Source of the DNA: a virus
Length of the DNA: 64,000 bases
Reading direction: 5' to 3' (one strand)
IMG/VR virus record: IMGVR_UViG_3300042397_000787
The notes beneath the pieces were generated by a model. It was given only the letters and a program-made list of their open reading frames with translations. It was not told the DNA's origin and did no database searches. Below are positions 24,798 to 33,108 of this stretch, in pieces (the first letter of the stretch is position 1; each line of letters starts with the position of its first letter). Made by a program: the position numbers and the translations under genes.

Positions 24798-25001
24798 ATG
24801 GAGATTGTGATGATTCTTGAGATATCTAGAAGTGAAGAGACCCTGCTTAAAGAGTTGGGTGTCACATGGAACGGTTGGCAGTATGAACATGCCGAGTTTC
24901 TTGAAATTAATTTTGAACTAGAAGCGAATGGTATTCCTACCTATTCGTCTTTTGAAGAATATCTTGAAGGCCGTGTGGCATATAAAAGGAAGGTTGCATA
25001 A
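24798..25001 (+). CDS. Hypothetical early protein (inverted relative to neighbours)
   Basis: Directly downstream of the early promoter. Confidence 0.6.
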   Translation: MEIVMILEISRSEETLLKELGVTWNGWQYEHAEFLEINFELEANGIPTYSSFEEYLEGRVAYKRKVA

Positions 25002-25064
25002 TGAACACCGAAGAACTAGAACAACACTTCCTTCAGATGGAGAAGGAACTATTCGAACAAGAAG

Positions 25065-27125
25065 TTACTTCGAAGTCGCCCGATACACGCCGTCCCAATC
25101 TTTCGGAGGCGATACCTGAAACTCTTCAATACGGCTAATCATCGAGTCGTAATAATCAGATAGTTCACCTTGCCAGCACTTCTTTAAGTCGCTGGCAAAT
25201 TTTTTGGCTATTTCCCAGTTACCTTCACGATAAAATGTAAGAAACTTCTCATGCTGTTTCTCGCCTGGATGATCGAAGGTTTCCAAGATAGTGAAAATCT
25301 TAGCTGGCAGTGTCTTACCTTTAACTGCAATCAAATCAAGTTCGACTACTTGGTATACATCCCTAACCAGTTCGGCAGTTTGCGGTCCGACGATGAGTTT
25401 GACGCCATAAGACTTGGTTTGACCTTCCAGACGAGCAGCCAGATTAACGCCATCCCCCAAGCAAGTATAGTCAAAACGCTGAGTGCTGCCCATATTACCA
25501 ACAACCACAGTGGCAGTGTTAATACCAAGACCCATCCCAAAAGCGGGAATGCCTTCTCTTTGAACTTCTTCATTGAAAGTCTCCAAATCTTTTAGCATCT
25601 GAAATGATGTTTTAACTGCATCTAGTGCATGTTGGTTATTATCGAGAGGCGCATTCCAGAATGCCATCTGTGCATCGCCGATATACTTATCAAGTGTGCC
25701 GTTATTTTCAAGAATTGCTTTTGTCATGACCGTCATATAACGATTCATGATTGAAGTCAAGCCTTGGACATCTTCACCATAATGTTCTGAGATAGTAGTG
25801 AACCCTCGAACGTCCGTAAACATAATTGAAAGTTCGCGAGACTCTCCGCCAAGTTTTAATAGTTCTGGTTCTCTTTGTAGTCTTGCTACCAAATCTGGAC
25901 TCAAGTAGGTACCAAACTGTTTCTTAATTTGTTGCTTCTGAAGGAATTCGCTAATAAACTTTACAGTGTAGATATGCATATAGATTATTGCAATTGCTAG
26001 TATGTTAAATGTTACATCAAGTAAAATACCGTGTTGCGAGAACAGATATAATGGTAGATAGAAATATCCGCCTAGTAGAACTGCGATAAATATAATCGAA
26101 AATCTAAATCTAGAGAGAATGATCAATGCCAGAGCAAGACCCAGAAACGCCGCAAGATCCGCAATTGCTGACCAATTCGGAATCGAAACAGAATCCCCAT
26201 TTATCAGAGTTTCTAGTAGACTGGCCTGAAGGACATGGGGATGTTGCGCACCTGATGGAGTCGCTACAGGATTTGCAATTCCAGCAGCAGTTACGCCAAG
26301 AATTACAATTTTCCCATCAAGACGAGGAATATCAGAACCTACTTCAACAGTCGGAAATACGTAATTGGGGTTGACAAATACTCTTCCATATTCATCAGTT
26401 TTAATAGTTTCAAAAGAAGGAATTCGTAATGCTTCAACCCCAGTCTGATTTATCTTGGCTTGATACGAAGAGTCTCCTGCAGCTACACGCAGCATCTCTA
26501 GAGCAAATGCGGGATAGTATTCGCCTGATGTTTGAGATAGAAGAGGAACTCGCCTTACAACCCCATCACTCTCGGGTAGGGTCGACGTTATCCCAACACC
26601 GACTGCGGCTTCTTGAAGAGGTGCGATATTACTTAGAACGCACGGATATTGAGGAAGAAATTCAGTTGCTTCTCCATCGCCGATTACGGCAACGCCTGTT
26701 CTCCGAATTGTCGCACTTGCCCGAGAACAAGAATCACTTACCGTCTGACTCAGAACGACTGGATGTGATCTAAGGGTATCGACAAGAACACCGTCAGTCC
26801 CCATACGATCAGGCTCAGGCATAAGTATAGTGCTGCCAACAAGAGCAGCCCCTCTGCCATAAATGTCGCTAATAATTTGAGCATGGACTTCCCTAGGGAA
26901 AGGCCACTGGCCATATTTCTCAATTGCTTTCTCCCCAATATTGATAGTTACAATTTGTTCAGATTGCGTCGGCGAACCGAGCATCAAATAATCATAAAAC
27001 TTCAATCTCGCGGATTCGACCATGTATGGGTTTGATAATTTTACTGCTAACAGCACCGCGAAAGTAATCAATGCCAACCACGGCGAAAGAAGAGCTTTCT
27101 TAGTTTTTTGTATAAGAGTATCCAT
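25065..27125 (-). CDS. CHASE2-domain class III adenylate/guanylate cyclase
   Basis: GQWPFPR and DGVVRRVP (CHASE2), TM helices, FTDVRGFT, DKYIGDAQMAFW, GINT, GDGVNLAARLE. Confidence 0.96.
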   Translation of the reverse strand: MDTLIQKTKKALLSPWLALITFAVLLAVKLSNPYMVESARLKFYDYLMLGSPTQSEQIVTINIGEKAIEKYGQWPFPREVHAQIISDIYGRGAALVGSTILMPEPDRMGTDGVLVDTLRSHPVVLSQTVSDSCSRASATIRRTGVAVIGDGEATEFLPQYPCVLSNIAPLQEAAVGVGITSTLPESDGVVRRVPLLSQTSGEYYPAFALEMLRVAAGDSSYQAKINQTGVEALRIPSFETIKTDEYGRVFVNPNYVFPTVEVGSDIPRLDGKIVILGVTAAGIANPVATPSGAQHPHVLQASLLETLINGDSVSIPNWSAIADLAAFLGLALALIILSRFRFSIIFIAVLLGGYFYLPLYLFSQHGILLDVTFNILAIAIIYMHIYTVKFISEFLQKQQIKKQFGTYLSPDLVARLQREPELLKLGGESRELSIMFTDVRGFTTISEHYGEDVQGLTSIMNRYMTVMTKAILENNGTLDKYIGDAQMAFWNAPLDNNQHALDAVKTSFQMLKDLETFNEEVQREGIPAFGMGLGINTATVVVGNMGSTQRFDYTCLGDGVNLAARLEGQTKSYGVKLIVGPQTAELVRDVYQVVELDLIAVKGKTLPAKIFTILETFDHPGEKQHEKFLTFYREGNWEIAKKFASDLKKCWQGELSDYYDSMISRIEEFQVSPPKDWDGVYRATSK

Positions 27126-28554
27126 TACATGGTCCAGTCGTGCATGTTATTTCCATTTTCGCAGAGTCGGCGGCAGTCAAGTTATTTTGTGTGACAGTTA
27201 CACCAATTCCAGGACTATTTAGTAAAAGTTGAAATTGCTTCATAGAAGAACCCAATTGAGTAACCGATGCAGTAACTCCACCAAATGGTGCGCTGATATC
27301 CAGAAAATGGTTAGCAGTTCCCTGTTGTAAGGTACTGATATTATTAGCATTTCCTAACGCATTGATAAACAACGATTTTCCTCCAGCATCTTTTTGTTGA
27401 GCCGAGATTTGATTGCCAAGTCCATTGGTGATAATCTCGGCATATTTGCTGCCTTGTTGTTGCGTCAATGACACTACGTTGTTATCACCAGTAACGGAAA
27501 CTTCTGCTAAGTTCTTGCCGATTGGTGTAGTTGCTGTTCCTTGATTAATAGTAACGCTGTTACCACTACCATTGATAGTCATTGCTTGTGCGCCATTTAC
27601 GCCACGGATTTGGTTCTGCTTAGAGGACTGTTCGATGTAAACAGAATTGCTAGAACCAGTTACATTGATGTAGATAGAGTTTTGTGTGATCGCATTAGTT
27701 TGATTAATCTTCAATGATTGGTTTGCACTGATAGAAGCGAGAGGATATGTCGGTTCAGGTGGTGCAGGTGCAGGAGGTGGCGGCGCAGAAGAACCAGCAT
27801 TCGGTTGAACTGGAGTAAATGCTGTTCCATTCAGCGAGGTACTACCTTGTAACTGATCAATAAACAAAATTGGCGATAATGAAGTATCACCGAGATTGAA
27901 TGATGCAAATCCTAGATTATAGTTACCATCAGCAGGAACAGTAAACACTGCGACTTGCCAACCTGTTGCACCATATGAGTTTGTAGAATAGTTACCTGTT
28001 CCTGGATTCGTAAACCCAAGTAGCGCATAGTTCTGCGTAAGACCATTGACAGTTGGTGTTCCTGGACCGCCAGTAAGAGTTATGATTGAACCATCATTGA
28101 ATGGAACGTAATCGGTCGAAAGATATTGCCACGCAAAGGTATATGTTACACCTGCCTGCAATGCTACGCTTCTTCTAACCCAAGATGCGTTAGTTGGAGT
28201 TGAGTTTCCACCAAGAGATGTAAGATAGGATCTGATACTAGAAATGTCGGATCCTTGTAAACCAAGCGATGTCATGGCAGGGTCGAAGTTGACTGACCCT
28301 GCTCCTGCTTGAACAGCAAGCATGTAAGAACCATATGGCGTAACTGTCCAACACTTACCGCCACCTGGACAATAGTTAGTCATTCCAGTTGTAACTTGAG
28401 AACCTGAACCGTTTGGACTCCAACTGTTTCTTAGAGTTGTTGACCCATTACTGACAGTCCATTCGGTATAGTTACCGTTTTCAAATCCAAGGTTTGTTTG
28501 TGCGAACGCTGGTATCGTAAAGAATAGTAAAAATAAAGCAATTAGTTTTTTCAT
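27100..28554 (-). CDS. Secreted protein: beta-sandwich N-domain, Pro linker, curlin-like repeat C-domain
   Basis: Signal peptide, NLGFENG, PPPPAPAPP linker, repeated 'G..N...i.Q' units. Confidence 0.6.
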   Translation of the reverse strand: MKKLIALFLLFFTIPAFAQTNLGFENGNYTEWTVSNGSTTLRNSWSPNGSGSQVTTGMTNYCPGGGKCWTVTPYGSYMLAVQAGAGSVNFDPAMTSLGLQGSDISSIRSYLTSLGGNSTPTNASWVRRSVALQAGVTYTFAWQYLSTDYVPFNDGSIITLTGGPGTPTVNGLTQNYALLGFTNPGTGNYSTNSYGATGWQVAVFTVPADGNYNLGFASFNLGDTSLSPILFIDQLQGSTSLNGTAFTPVQPNAGSSAPPPPAPAPPEPTYPLASISANQSLKINQTNAITQNSIYINVTGSSNSVYIEQSSKQNQIRGVNGAQAMTINGSGNSVTINQGTATTPIGKNLAEVSVTGDNNVVSLTQQQGSKYAEIITNGLGNQISAQQKDAGGKSLFINALGNANNISTLQQGTANHFLDISAPFGGVTASVTQLGSSMKQFQLLLNSPGIGVTVTQNNLTAADSAKMEITCTTGPCNGYSYTKN

Positions 28555-29696
28555 CTTGCACCTGTTTCTTGCATCACAGTTATATTACCCTGTGGTCTAC
28601 CAGTTCCCGATGTTGTCCACTTATCGTCCATAAAGTTATAGACATCTACTAATCCGTTTTGAACGGATACAACTTGTGCTTCGTTACCCTTCTCTAACCA
28701 GATAGTAACTGCCTGTTGTCTGTCATCTGATAGTCGAGTATACACCCAACCGACCTGAACGTTCTTCTTGAATGTCGGCGACACATTAGTATAAACTGTT
28801 TCCGCTGGTTTACTACCTTCGTTAAACTCAGCATAAACTTCTAGAAGTTCTTGTGGTGTTGCTTGGCGAAGCATGGCAACAGTAACTTGTTCTGTATTAT
28901 CATTCGTGCCTGCATCTGGATCCTTATTGTCATCCGATGCTGCTTTTGCTGGGTTAGTGAATTTCTTTAAACTATCTCTAGCAAGTTGAAGTAAACTCTG
29001 ACCATCATCTGTTTCCAACGGAACAATTTGAACGTTGTTATCTAATGTCTTAATCAAAGGATTAATGATTACTGGTGGAGCAGGAGGAGCAAAATTGTTT
29101 TCTACAACTGTTGCTTGGAATGGTTGGTTTAACGTAACTACGCCAGATGCAGTTATTACATCGATTGAACCGTTAGGACATTCGGCAGTTTGTTTTGTGA
29201 TGTCCAATTCGTTATAGCATTCGGGAACCAGCACGACCGTAGAACGACCTGCTTCATCAACCGACATAACGAAGTCTGTGCCACGAACTGCGATAGTAGC
29301 AGTCGGTGTGCGAATGTTTACGCCTCGTGGGTTTGTTTTTGCGACTTTGCCTGATGCGTATCTGACGGTGCCAAGCGCGACCCGAAGTCCAAGTTTGCCC
29401 TTCGTCTTCCCTCCCCCATCATACACAAAGTCATCCACAAGAAGGCGAGAGTTTTCTGTAATATTAACGGTAGTCGAGTCATTGAATGTAATCCTAAATC
29501 TGCCTTGACTGTTTGTTGAAACAGTGTCCATCTTTTGAACTCGTGCACCCTTAGATGCAACTGTAGTCTTGGCGCCACGCTTAATAGCACCACCTCCTCT
29601 GAAATCTGTTATCGACCCAATATCCGCAAAGGCAGGAGTCGATAACAGAAATATCAGTAGAAGATTAGTGACCAGTTTTGATATTAAACGTGCCAT
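28551..29696 (-). CDS. FecR-domain periplasmic protein
   Basis: Signal peptide; ITF.D.T.V.I.ENSRL..DDFVYD, IRTPTATIAVRGTDF. Confidence 0.88.
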   Translation of the reverse strand: MARLISKLVTNLLLIFLLSTPAFADIGSITDFRGGGAIKRGAKTTVASKGARVQKMDTVSTNSQGRFRITFNDSTTVNITENSRLLVDDFVYDGGGKTKGKLGLRVALGTVRYASGKVAKTNPRGVNIRTPTATIAVRGTDFVMSVDEAGRSTVVLVPECYNELDITKQTAECPNGSIDVITASGVVTLNQPFQATVVENNFAPPAPPVIINPLIKTLDNNVQIVPLETDDGQSLLQLARDSLKKFTNPAKAASDDNKDPDAGTNDNTEQVTVAMLRQATPQELLEVYAEFNEGSKPAETVYTNVSPTFKKNVQVGWVYTRLSDDRQQAVTIWLEKGNEAQVVSVQNGLVDVYNFMDDKWTTSGTGRPQGNITVMQETGAR

Positions 29697-30438
29697 TTGA
29701 TCCCACACTATTAATATTGATCACAGTTTCAGATGCACCATACTGTTGTGTTGTTACAGTGTTTAGCGAACCTGTCAGGTTTACATATAGTGAGTGACCG
29801 AATGTTCCACCGAGATCGGTTTGTGTAACATCAAAGTCATTGTAGTTGCCTGTCACCAGAATAGTTTGTGACGCATTTGGTGATAGTGCATCCATGTTGA
29901 TTGTGTTATTGTTACCGTTGAAATCCATCGAGTTGCGGATATTAGCACCCGAACCACGGAAAACAAAAGCATTGTTGTTACCAGTGAACTTGGCATTCAT
30001 GTCGAGTTGATTACATGAGGAGTCAGACTCTTCTGTTCCACAACGAATAGTAGCAGTGTTCAAATCGCCAATTTGACGAATTGTTACATCGGCGATTCCT
30101 TGTGCTCCTGTATCGGATACGACACCCATATAAAGTTGGTTTCCATTGCCTGTCTGTATTGCGATAACGCTCTGGTTATCACCACGTAGGTAAATAGGAT
30201 CAAGAGTAGAACCGATAACGTTAGCAGTACCAGTTTGAACGATGTTAACATCTACGTTACCCCCTTCTTGATCGATATATACCTTATTTGTTGTTGCAAC
30301 AGTATTCGCTTCTGTTTCATTTGGCGAAGTTGTTACAATTGCTGGAGGAGTTGGTGCTGTTGGCAGCACAGTTTGTGCAATCACAGATGTTCCATAACAA
30401 AGAGCAGCGCCAACGAATAAAAACTTACTTAGTTTCAT
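29665..30438 (-). CDS. Curlin-like (CsgA/CsgB-type) secreted repeat protein
   Basis: Signal peptide; NKVYIDQEG, QTGTAN, QTGNGN, QIGDLN repeats; adjacent to csgG. Confidence 0.7.
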   Translation of the reverse strand: MKLSKFLFVGAALCYGTSVIAQTVLPTAPTPPAIVTTSPNETEANTVATTNKVYIDQEGGNVDVNIVQTGTANVIGSTLDPIYLRGDNQSVIAIQTGNGNQLYMGVVSDTGAQGIADVTIRQIGDLNTATIRCGTEESDSSCNQLDMNAKFTGNNNAFVFRGSGANIRNSMDFNGNNNTINMDALSPNASQTILVTGNYNDFDVTQTDLGGTFGHSLYVNLTGSLNTVTTQQYGASETVININSVGSNGTFNIKTGH

Positions 30439-31249
30439 TTGTTGTTTCCTTTTGTTTGAATCTCCATAGATTTTTGGTTTCACCATCCTTGATTAACTCA
30501 ACAACGGCCGTTTCTATGGCAGAACGGATCGCATAACTACCTGCTTCATTACTTGTTTGTTGTCCATCAAATTCAAACGCTTTAGTTGCCATGTCGAAGA
30601 ATGTGAATGCAGTTATCCCCTCAGATGTAGAGAGAACAGTTTTCTCTACAGTAACCGAATTGAGAACTTCACCAGTCTGGACAGAAACTAGACGAAGACT
30701 AACTGTAACTTGGTCTTGTGTGTATTGCTGGTATGGACCGACGCCAAGGAATCTAGCGCCAGTACCACCAGTTTTAATGTTAGAGTTATAGTCAATGATA
30801 CCACCTTCTATGATGATACCTGCAACCTTTAGTGGTGGAAGAGGTTCGGCAGATTCACCTGAAATCTGTTCGCGCATCTGGCGAACAAGTTGACGTTCTT
30901 TAATCAGCGAATCAATACCAACACGCTCAACAGGGATAAACCACTTACCATTGCCCGTATCTTGTAAAGTCTTAATCAGATATGCATCTGCACCTTGGGT
31001 AACCGCAGTAGAGAAACTTGCGAGAGTCGAAGATGGTTTACGTTGACCAGTTCTATCAGTAAATGAATACAACGCAATAGGAATTGGTTGACCATCAAGT
31101 TCTGGTAAATTTTTAAAAAGTTTTGGATTAGCAAAACGCTTGACTTCTGCATCGTCTCTGAATAGATATGATTGGTTAGCAGTAGGATGAAGCGCACCAA
31201 CGCAACCAGAAAGAACGAGTAAAAGTGGAAGGAGAATTAACTTTTTCAT
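30425..31249 (-). CDS. csgG: Curli secretion channel CsgG (lipoprotein)
   Basis: Lipobox LSGC; FTDRTGQRKP, STAVTQG, WF..VER, KERQ, EGGIIDY, VSLRLVSVQTGEVL. Confidence 0.95.
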   Translation of the reverse strand: MKKLILLPLLLVLSGCVGALHPTANQSYLFRDDAEVKRFANPKLFKNLPELDGQPIPIALYSFTDRTGQRKPSSTLASFSTAVTQGADAYLIKTLQDTGNGKWFIPVERVGIDSLIKERQLVRQMREQISGESAEPLPPLKVAGIIIEGGIIDYNSNIKTGGTGARFLGVGPYQQYTQDQVTVSLRLVSVQTGEVLNSVTVEKTVLSTSEGITAFTFFDMATKAFEFDGQQTSNEAGSYAIRSAIETAVVELIKDGETKNLWRFKQKETTNETK

Positions 31250-31258
31250 AACGTCTCC

Positions 31259-31708
31259 TTAGAATGCAAACGTAGCAATAGGAACGACAACAACCGTAGT
31301 ATTGCCATTCTTATCAACTACTGTTAGAGTAACTTCGGTGCCAGTCTTGACATAACTTACAGAGTTACCATCGAGATTGAATGTTCCCGTGGTTGCTGTT
31401 CCGCCTTCTGCGAACAGATTGTTAGAAAGTTGTGTTGCAAGTTGTGCGTAAACCTGAGAGGTAAAGAGTGCCATGAATTTAGCAAGAGGAGTATTTGATG
31501 CCTCTGCCCTTATCAGTGCCGCTTTCGCTGCTTCGGCATCCTTAATTGCCTGCTCACGCGAACGCTCTTGCGCATCGATTGATTGCACATGCGAAGACCA
31601 CCCATAACCAGTAAAGGAAGGTGATTTAAACTGTTGAACAATTGGATCCGCGTATGCTGGACTACTTAGACTTAGTAGCGTCAGGAGCACCATCGCTCGT
31701 TTTAGCAT
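31259..31708 (-). CDS. csgF: Curli assembly protein CsgF-like
   Basis: Signal peptide followed by FKSPSF.G.G; C-terminal G..T.V.VP; immediately upstream of csgG. Confidence 0.8.
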   Translation of the reverse strand: MLKRAMVLLTLLSLSSPAYADPIVQQFKSPSFTGYGWSSHVQSIDAQERSREQAIKDAEAAKAALIRAEASNTPLAKFMALFTSQVYAQLATQLSNNLFAEGGTATTGTFNLDGNSVSYVKTGTEVTLTVVDKNGNTTVVVVPIATFAF

Positions 31709-31799
31709 CTTTCTCTTCCTTTTTGTTTTTGTTGTCAGAAGAAAAATTTAAATCAAAGGAAAATACTTTAAGGATCTCAATCTTTAGATTTAGTGTCAT
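31662..31799 (-). CDS. Small hypothetical protein (45 aa; not in ORF track)
   Basis: MTLNLKIEILKVFSFDLNFSS...; fills the gap between neighbours. Confidence 0.4.
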   Translation of the reverse strand: MTLNLKIEILKVFSFDLNFSSDNKNKKEEKDAKTSDGAPDATKSK

Positions 31800-32043
31800 T
31801 ACTGTGATCCTCTTTTATTTGCAAAACTACACTCACCTTCTGGTTTAATCTAATCAAATCGTTGTCGAGCATACGAACACGATCAATCAACGCAATCAAA
31901 ATTACGTTTGTCTCACCAATCAACGGCATCAATTTATCAGTTACGAACTTATAAATGAACCAAACAAAATATCCCATACCGACAGATGCGACGATTGGGA
32001 ATCCATATTGTTTAACTAGTTCTGCTACAATTGATGGATCCAT
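31777..32043 (-). CDS. Small single-TM protein (GFPI motif) with coiled coil
   Basis: YGFPIVASVGMGYFVWF...IDRVRMLDNDLIRL; paralog of the next gene. Confidence 0.75.
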   Translation of the reverse strand: MDPSIVAELVKQYGFPIVASVGMGYFVWFIYKFVTDKLMPLIGETNVILIALIDRVRMLDNDLIRLNQKVSVVLQIKEDHSNDTKSKD

Positions 32044-32330
32044 TAATCTTTCCGAGCATCGTTCTTCCCGTCTGCTCGTGCGATTCTGTCTAGATCTGGT
32101 TTAAGACCCAAGGCGGAACTAACAACTGCATCAACGCGAATAATATCATGGTTCATTGTCTTGACTCGGTTGTCGAGTCCCATAATAATACCCTGCATTC
32201 CCTTGAGTGCTTTAACAACGCTCTCGAGGATGTAGTTGATAACAAAATATACGAAGACACCACCGAGCAAGGCCGCTGCAATGGGGAATCCTACATCTCC
32301 AATAAGTTTAAATATCGTATCGTATGACAT
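32043..32330 (-). CDS. Small single-TM protein (GFPI motif), paralog
   Basis: VGFPIAAALLGGVFVYF...LDNRVKTMNHDIIRVD; start follows a late promoter. Confidence 0.75.
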   Translation of the reverse strand: MSYDTIFKLIGDVGFPIAAALLGGVFVYFVINYILESVVKALKGMQGIIMGLDNRVKTMNHDIIRVDAVVSSALGLKPDLDRIARADGKNDARKD

Positions 32331-32338
32331 ATCAATTC

Positions 32339-32350
32339 TATTTATAAATA
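32339..32350. promoter_or_regulatory. Overlapping divergent T4 late promoters
   Basis: Palindrome TATTTATAAATA gives TATAAATA on both strands. Confidence 0.75.
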
Positions 32351-32373: not shown

Positions 32374-33108
32374 ATGGCAGGTGCAGCGGCAGAAAGACAA
32401 GAAAATACTTTTGTTAAGTCAATTAATGATGCGGTCAAGAAAAATCCGGCTGGAATTAAGATAAAAGCCGGTTCTCAGACTATTTCTGGAGTAATTAAAG
32501 CGGAAAAATTCACCGGAAGACAAGTTTCTGGCTCTGAACCCTATATTGATGTCAATTTACATCTGGCTGACGGTAAAACTACAGTAGGCATCTCTATGAA
32601 AGGTGAGACTGCGCCCTCATTAGCGGGTGGCGGACTGAAAGGCATCAATTTAGCCGTCCCAGGACTTGCGAATAAGTTTATGAAAGCAGTTTTAGCGCAT
32701 CTAAAGAAAAAAATTAAGCCCGGAGACAAAGTTCCGGACTGTTATGGTAAGATTAGTGACCAACATAAAGTAACAATTGTGGTTGGTAACAAAGATATGG
32801 GTGGCCCAATTGACTACATGTATATTGGCAACATGACTCCCGTATCTAACTACAACAAAAGCACCAACACACTTTCGTTTAACAATGGAAACTTCTATGA
32901 AGCAACCAAATATGCTAAGTCACATGACCTATATTTCAGACTTCGTGCTAGAAGAGAAGACCAAGTGTTTGATCCAACTGCAAAAGACAGTATGAACGTG
33001 CCTAAAATCTATTCTAAGTCACCAAGTAAAGGGGACTCCGCCGGTAGAATAGTTGTTACCGACAAAGTCCCCAATAATGCATTACAAAATGTAGTTAATA
33101 TTGTTTAA
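32374..33108 (+). CDS. Late protein, possible PD-(D/E)XK nuclease fold
   Basis: AAGGAAG RBS; ERQE...PYID...GISMK pattern. Confidence 0.5.
   Translation: MAGAAAERQENTFVKSINDAVKKNPAGIKIKAGSQTISGVIKAEKFTGRQVSGSEPYIDVNLHLADGKTTVGISMKGETAPSLAGGGLKGINLAVPGLANKFMKAVLAHLKKKIKPGDKVPDCYGKISDQHKVTIVVGNKDMGGPIDYMYIGNMTPVSNYNKSTNTLSFNNGNFYEATKYAKSHDLYFRLRARREDQVFDPTAKDSMNVPKIYSKSPSKGDSAGRIVVTDKVPNNALQNVVNIV

Follow-up and report, generated by a model that had tools for sequence, protein, structure and literature searches.

A freshwater phage copy of the viral curli, FecR and CHASE2 adenylate cyclase cassette and its possible role in signalling from the cell surface

Why would a phage carry, within one operon, the pore and subunits of a curli secretion system together with a FecR-domain protein and a receptor-type adenylate cyclase (AC)? 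The question is raised by a 64,000-nucleotide (nt) stretch of DNA, here called the window, from IMG/VR virus record IMGVR_UViG_3300042397_000787, which belongs to an uncultured T4-like phage of a freshwater (lake) lineage. Its minus strand holds eight genes over 32330..25065: tmA, tmB, csgF, csgG, cur1, fecR, cur2 and the cyclase gene (Table 1). All eight had been proposed, tightly packed, in a first-pass annotation made from the sequence alone, and Pfam, PHROG and profile searches found each of them where it had been placed. The window copy is a freshwater member of the published viral cassette that joins a type VIII secretion system (T8SS) to FecR and AC, and the core finding is not new. As to function, we rate at slightly better than even the reading that the cassette makes a lectin-decorated curli fibre and a FecR/CHASE2 sensor producing cyclic AMP (cAMP).

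The coupling of FecR and cyclase genes to curli genes, which the first-pass annotation put forward as a candidate phage system, had already been published in full in 2022. Wittmers et al. described an “HK”-CsgF-CsgG-CsgA/B-FecR-CsgA/B-AC cassette in marine pelagiphage Podoviridae and Myoviridae, with trees of CsgG, CsgF, FecR and AC, an ocean-wide distribution and expression in ocean metatranscriptomes; they put the share of viral curli proteins among assembled ocean viral proteins at ~0.1% and proposed superinfection defence, sibling capture, import and recombination as functions (PMC9599517). Zaragoza-Solas et al. (2020) had reported csgF and csgG in pelagimyophages (PMC7029224), and Buchholz et al. 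(2022) modelled the CsgG/CsgF of phage Melnitz and suggested that they help to time lysis (PMC9004378); neither mentions the cyclase. The window shares all four features that define the Wittmers cassette, namely csgF and csgG followed by a curlin, then fecR, a second curlin and the cyclase, small genes ahead of csgF, and a phage context. Its proteins are 40–50% identical to their counterparts in HTVC008M and Melnitz, which have the same genes in the same order. A DNA-level search of deposited phages returned no match, and these relatives surfaced by protein search only.

Conservation was analyzed in two sets of IMG/VR loci, 80 found via CsgG and 80 found via the cyclase. The genes csgF, csgG, cur1, fecR and the cyclase follow one another in the same order in every CsgG-found locus of sufficient reach, including those with CsgG identity as low as 45%, and csgG is present in all 46 cyclase-found loci with at least 6 kb of upstream sequence. 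Some lineages have the cyclase or tmA/tmB inverted, yet still adjacent. The first-pass annotation had allowed that the cyclase and FecR genes might prove unlinked from the csg genes in relatives; the linkage held in all loci reaching far enough. The cassette is real, intact and under selection, and its curli and cyclase halves are strictly co-inherited and probably act together.

Table 1. Features of the operon and its flanking signals in the window (all on the minus strand).
Feature	Position	Strand	Evidence or remark
TATAAATA, T4-type late-promoter consensus	32339..32346	−	8 nt ahead of first start codon (tmA)
tmA, 95-residue single-pass membrane protein	32043..32330	−	phrog_18771 1e-29; GFPI motif
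tmB, 88-residue tmA paralog	31777..32043	−	phrog_18771 9e-31
csgF, secreted CsgG-capping protein	31259..31708	−	PF10614 2e-17; signal peptide and FKSPSF motif in sequence
csgG, outer-membrane lipoprotein pore	30425..31249	−	PF03783 4e-52
cur1, 257-residue secreted CsgA/B-like curlin-repeat protein	29665..30438	−	Family profile against solved curlins
fecR, exported FecR-fold protein, 385 residues	28551..29708	−	PF04773 2.5e-13
cur2, 484-residue lectin-headed curlin	27100..28554	−	Family profile against 8c50; head model
CHASE2 receptor class III adenylate cyclase, 686 residues	25065..27125	−	CHASE2 2e-37; Guanylate_cyc 3e-17
Terminator-like hairpin, weak	25028..25048	−	Directly past cyclase stop codon; consensus match only

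The pore protein CsgG matches E. coli CsgG (3x2r) over its full length (residues 1–268, 6e-49) and retains both the lipobox LSGC and the constriction loop TGQxKP...FSTAV, while CsgF as a single sequence did not retrieve E. coli CsgF from the PDB. No operon protein matched CsgE or CsgC, in keeping with the first-pass annotation, and CsgE (PF10627) was likewise missing from five related phage genomes. The two proteins that had been called curlin-like carry Curlin_rpt matches that are weak in the single sequences (1.6e-3, below cut-off), but their family profiles make the assignment firm: the cur1 profile finds the solved curlin 8c50 at 1.7e-9 and E. coli CsgA (8enq) at 3e-4, and the cur2 profile finds 8c50 at 1.5e-8. 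Cur1 has about nine Q-x-G-x-x-N repeats and weak NCBIfam matches to CsgB and CsgA, and Curlin_rpt is present in both curlin genes of the five related phage genomes, above cut-off in four. It is very probable that the cassette encodes a T8SS exporting curlin subunits.

The second curlin is of composite build, with a signal peptide, a carbohydrate-binding module (CBM)-like beta-sandwich head (residues ~20–235), a proline linker, curlin repeats (~295–470) and a C-terminal CxxxxC. The predicted model of the head consistently resembles CBM61, CBM27, CBM4, CBM16 and CBM22. Across lineages the slot between fecR and the cyclase is empty (in one), or holds a bare curlin, or a curlin fused to a PA14/GLEYA or an F5/8-type-C (discoidin) head. 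Lectin-type heads are exchanged between lineages on a conserved curlin stalk, the head being CBM-like here. One locus (L074:14492-17371; L numbers are our locus handles) has an extra gene of 959 residues, with no Pfam match, between its PA14-headed protein and the cyclase.

At the other end of the operon, the cyclase is predicted to consist of a transmembrane (TM) helix (residues 12–30), a periplasmic CHASE2 domain (Pfam, residues 23–335), a hydrophobic block (residues 319–385) made up of two or three TM helices, of which two segments were called by the scan, and a cytoplasmic cyclase domain. It aligns to CyaB (3r5g, 9e-31) and CyaC (1wc0). The catalytic motifs, described as intact in the first-pass annotation, proved to be so: with CyaB 3r5g as the reference, all six canonical class III (IIIb-like) residues of the ATP type are present, comprising the two metal-binding aspartates (D438 and D484), the substrate-specifying lysine and threonine (K480 and T554) and the transition-state asparagine and arginine (N561 and R565). 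The periplasmic domain is conserved, with many invariant positions, and the protein is likely a functional receptor adenylate cyclase. Two further phage cyclases (L064:15222-17282 and L070:13394-15427) have aspartate for the substrate threonine and serine for the transition-state asparagine (VSTAARLE), and may differ in activity or specificity.

Behind its signal peptide the FecR protein has a FecR domain, a cysteine pair, an acidic linker and, at the C-terminus, a small beta domain. The predicted structure, modelled with confidence over residues 30–220, matches the periplasmic signalling domains of a FecR-like protein (4m0h, 3.9e-5) and of PupR (6ovk, 2.9e-4), and in part the surface-anchoring domain of the adhesin MpIBP (5ix9; 61 residues, 30% identity). 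Weak sequence matches to the LapA retention module (22–24 bits against a cut-off of 50) agree with this anchoring-domain match. At the thresholds used, metagenomes hold 4,531 close relatives of the FecR-type protein and 1,242 of the cur2 head; both large searches retrieved close phage relatives only and no bacterial context.

Such a protein invites comparison with iron uptake. In an import reading, extending proposals in PMC7029224 and PMC9599517, CsgG/CsgF would form an open channel lacking its CsgE gate, and FecR and CHASE2 would sense an imported nutrient or cofactor. The absence of CsgE, the iron-citrate signalling for which FecR-fold domains are best known, and the unknown ligands of CHASE2 would all suit it. 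The phage protein, however, has neither the cytoplasmic anti-sigma N-terminus nor the TM anchor of a true FecR, only a cleavable-type signal peptide, and the operon encodes no extracytoplasmic function (ECF) sigma factor and no TonB-dependent transducer. The conserved curlins and CsgF, needless for a bare pore, point instead to secretion, and we regard import as highly improbable.

The two small proteins at the head of the operon bear on another alternative. Called GFPI membrane paralogs in the first-pass annotation, tmA and tmB both match phrog_18771 (1e-29 and 9e-31) and are paralogs of about 90 residues with one TM helix (residues 14–32 in tmA) and a charged helical tail. A survey of 50,697 deposited phage records places tmA in just two, HTVC008M and Melnitz, which are the cultured cassette carriers, and tmA and tmB appear to be cassette-specific phage accessories. 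The “HK” (histidine kinase) label given to these genes (PMC9599517) is not supported: at 88–95 residues they have no kinase domain, none of 18 family members matches HisKA/HATPase (HATPase_c) even at E up to 5, and their profile finds no kinase in the PDB. A single weak match of one paralog to CLZ, the cyclic-nucleotide-gated channel zipper, was dismissed as noise. The named Atlas clusters nearest to tmB are YvrJ (0.89) and Holin_BhlA (0.86), which are leads only.

These features would fit a lysis-timing device that extends the proposal of Buchholz et al. (2022), with CsgG/CsgF as a gated pore or pinholin-like channel, tmA and tmB as holin/antiholin-like proteins and the cyclase as a clock. 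Like many holins, tmA and tmB are small and single-pass with a charged helical tail, Holin_BhlA is among their nearest named clusters, a late-promoter consensus abuts tmA, and both genes are phage-specific, being found only in cassette-bearing phages and missing from a bacterial copy of the cassette described below. The Atlas score nevertheless lies below the level where chance matches are common, and neither Pfam nor the PDB lends support; CsgG, as a pore of the outer membrane, cannot depolarise the inner one; the operon has no linked endolysin; and lysis alone would hardly account for two curlin substrates with lectin-type heads. A role purely in lysis timing is very unlikely.

Relatives of the cyclase reveal how the two halves may have come together. 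The phage cyclases form a single clade (support 100), sister to alphaproteobacterial CHASE2 cyclases, and the closest bacterial cyclases, at ~35% identity, are alphaproteobacterial. A FecR match lies nearby in 37 of the 77 closest bacterial cyclase loci, and in most of these 37 it sits 110–140 residues from the N-terminus of a giant open frame of 1,200–3,080 codons that ends 100–300 bp ahead of the cyclase. In each of five giants tested, FecR occurs together with cadherin/Big/VCBS repeats and with RTX or serralysin-C repeats, and one of three scanned with NCBIfam has the type I secretion C-terminal target domain (TIGR03661). By their domain content these FecR-headed giants look like type I secreted adhesins, so that an adhesin, a FecR head and a CHASE2 cyclase travel together in bacteria too. 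In Labrenzia sp. DG1229 (L107:4168-9853) a TolC-like outer-membrane gene adjoins a FecR/cadherin/RTX protein of 1,330 residues directly upstream of a CHASE2 cyclase. The link to curli is another matter: no CsgG was found in three checked genomes with the closest cyclases, and neither FecR nor cyclase lies within 10 kb of the closest CsgG in seven alphaproteobacterial genomes.

The supposition that the cassette is absent from bacteria was overturned by one locus (L084:6001-12058, CANGEH010000001), a contig of a Caulobacteraceae metagenome-assembled genome (MAG) that carries csgF, csgG, two curlins, FecR and the CHASE2 cyclase, without tmA/tmB. The contig is bacterial-looking (TonB-dependent receptor, S9 peptidase, glycosyltransferases), and its GC content drops from 63–66% to 52–55% at the start of the cassette and does not recover across the peptidase and receptor genes downstream. 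Because its cyclase nests within the phage clade, we take this copy to have passed from a phage to a bacterium, although a mis-assembly is possible. When 301 genomes of the order to which this MAG belongs were searched by profile, no other full-length FecR of this type was found. Two further loci filed under bacterial MAGs (L083 and L085) look like mis-binned phage contigs. The second of these (L085:10001-16301, filed as a Luteolibacter MAG) has an inverted cyclase and three tm paralogs; a DNA ligase like that of the window lies nearby, which makes mis-binning probable. Overall, we see in the cassette a curli system fused to an adhesin-linked FecR/CHASE2 cyclase pair, a fusion borne by phages and occasionally returned to bacteria.

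A more specific conjecture, which we hold to be distinctly unlikely, is that FecR is a periplasmic stub reporting the loaded state of an adhesin to CHASE2, the adhesin being lectin-tipped curli here and a retained RTX giant in Alphaproteobacteria. Were it true, the orphan CHASE2 domain would gain a ligand and a lytic phage a contact sensor; captured neighbouring cells or particles would raise cAMP and tune the infection, and tmA/tmB could be the phage-side effector.

More broadly, the favoured reading of a lectin-decorated fibre with a cAMP-producing sensor would run as follows. The phage would supply the infected host with a CsgG/CsgF outer-membrane pore, which two Sec-exported curlin-repeat proteins would cross to polymerise outside the cell; one subunit would be plain and CsgA/B-like, and the other, with its N-terminal sugar-binding-type beta-sandwich head, would decorate the fibre with a lectin. 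The exported FecR-fold protein and the inner-membrane CHASE2 adenylate cyclase would form a sensor pair turning the state of the pore or fibre, or something that enters the periplasm through the pore, into cytoplasmic cAMP, with tmA and tmB as phage-specific accessories. The direction of this signal, from fibre or pore state to cAMP, is possible but doubtful. That the cell would thereby sense superinfection, aggregation or surface contact to time lysis, as the first-pass annotation suggested, could only be conjectured.

Several observations weigh against such a mechanism. Cells infected with Melnitz showed no clumping (PMC9004378), and CsgE, the periplasmic gate and adaptor of canonical curli systems, is missing. 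The head of cur2 gives weak fold matches (E 1e-3 to 1e-2), and the empty cur2 slot in one lineage (L047) implies that the lectin-headed subunit is dispensable. In two phage lineages a serine replaces the transition-state asparagine of the cyclase. No cyclic-nucleotide-binding domain was found in five related phage genomes, including HTVC008M, Melnitz and a sister genome that is 100% complete by CheckV estimate, and any reader of the cAMP would therefore be host-encoded or of unknown type. On the favourable side, contigs assembled from RNA libraries of four lake studies match parts of the operon at 90–99% identity, although they reveal neither strand, timing nor operon structure and may derive from carried-over DNA. 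Finally, and again on the opposing side, the FecR-domain neighbour in the S. meliloti pair cyaD1-smc02177, the sole CHASE2-cyclase locus to have been studied, is a cAMP/Clr target that is not needed for signal perception (PMC5498481); since SMc02177 acts downstream of cAMP, the phage FecR could likewise be an output rather than an input. The statement in the first-pass annotation that FecR-CHASE2 modules relay outer-membrane signals thus holds for their adjacency in bacteria (PMC5192318, PMC5498481) and for an outer-membrane input, S. meliloti CHASE2 cyclases receiving an extracellular protein signal via the outer-membrane protein NsrA (PMC13001267), but not for FecR as the relay (PMC5498481). 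With this last point the evidence touches an alternative in which the curli half is an adhesion or shielding device only, serving for sibling capture or as an anti-superinfection coat, and FecR and the cyclase regulate fibre production instead of sensing.

In E. coli, cAMP-CRP regulates csgD. The complete curlin set and the exchanged lectin-type heads would serve an adhesion device well, the hypothesis itself is already in PMC7029224 and PMC9599517, and the S. meliloti FecR-domain protein downstream of cAMP (PMC5498481) would be a precedent. Yet the phage cyclase shares an operon with the genes it would regulate, the related phage genomes encode no CsgD, CRP or other cyclic-nucleotide reader, the conserved periplasmic CHASE2 implies an extracytoplasmic input, and the absence of clumping with Melnitz (PMC9004378) speaks against adhesion as well. 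We consider adhesion or shielding alone unlikely, and retain the fibre coupled to a FecR/CHASE2 sensor as the preferred reading.

When the operon would be expressed was also addressed. The first-pass annotation called it a late operon, and the T4-type motif TATAAATA behind that name is real, is kept ahead of tmA in close relatives and in the distant loci L073 and L079, and stands ahead of csgF in HTVC008M. The motif is palindromic, with a plus-strand copy at 32343-32350 that faces a divergent gene at 32374-33108, and the window holds seven copies against a chance expectation of 4.7, which is no enrichment. Because the single consensus match is half of a palindrome and the copy number is near chance, late expression is plausible but not demonstrated. 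At 8 nt from the tmA start it would leave almost no leader. Terminator-consensus matches are no more frequent in the window than in shuffled sequence, and terminator and sigma-70 promoter scans gave results at or below chance.

The operon genes abut or overlap their neighbours, except for a 68-nt gap ahead of csgF with a strong Shine-Dalgarno sequence. Translation of tmA starts at ATG 32330 (95 residues), an upstream TTG at 32438 being the wrong start, and that of cur1 probably at ATG 30438 (MKLSK..., signal peptide). One flank of the operon is a run of radical-SAM genes and a carbamoyltransferase; the other holds a TET-associated glycosyltransferase, a GT-B glycosyltransferase, a sugar epimerase, a DNA ligase and a DNA methylase. 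Two small plus-strand open reading frames converge on the cyclase gene, one of 67 residues (24798-25001) and one of 45 residues (25001-25138), the latter with a strong AAGGAAGG Shine-Dalgarno sequence and an overlap with the 3' end of the cyclase gene. The divergent gene (32374-33108, plus strand, 244 residues) has its own TATAAATA (32343-32350) and a good Shine-Dalgarno sequence, and no PHROG match.

During infection, streamlined planktonic hosts without curli genes of their own would gain a surface fibre and a second-messenger source. If the fibre does carry exchangeable sugar-binding heads wired to cAMP, this bears on how phages of dilute waters find the next host or exclude rivals, on particle formation in lakes and oceans, and on the input of the widespread CHASE2 sensor. 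Two cultured phage–host pairs, HTVC008M with SAR11 and Melnitz with OM43, make the cassette an attractive test system.

Compared with known systems, the window copy is closest in kind to the pelagiphage T8SS region (HTVC008M KC465899, Melnitz MZ577097), which likewise lacks CsgE, CsgC and CsgD and has parts of alphaproteobacterial affinity. It differs in being from freshwater, where fonsimyophages were reported without the operon (PMC7029224), in the CBM-like head of its second curlin, and in that the “HK” label is not borne out; the pelagiphage cassette papers (PMC9599517, PMC7029224, PMC9004378) are silent on CHASE2, lectin heads and transmembrane features. With E. coli curli (CsgBAC/CsgDEFG) it shares the CsgG lipoprotein pore, CsgF and Sec-exported Q-x-G-x-x-N curlin subunits, whereas it is borne by a lytic phage, lacks CsgE, CsgC and CsgD, and adds a lectin-headed subunit as well as FecR and a CHASE2 cyclase in the operon. 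S. meliloti CyaD1, CyaD2 and CyaK are likewise receptor cyclases with a periplasmic CHASE2, fed through an outer-membrane barrel, and a FecR-domain gene adjoins cyaD1; that system has no curli, SMc02177 is its output, and it possesses the reader Clr, the like of which was not found in the related phage genomes. Fec-type FecR and PupR have the periplasmic FecR-fold domain in common with the phage protein, but not the anti-sigma domain, TM anchor and partners. LapA of P. fluorescens, MpIBP of Marinomonas and the FecR-headed RTX giants present a FecR-fold, retention-like N-terminal module in the company of a surface adhesin and a CHASE2 cyclase; there the FecR head is fused to the adhesin, itself a single giant substrate of type I secretion, whereas the phage adhesin would be a curli fibre, with FecR encoded separately.

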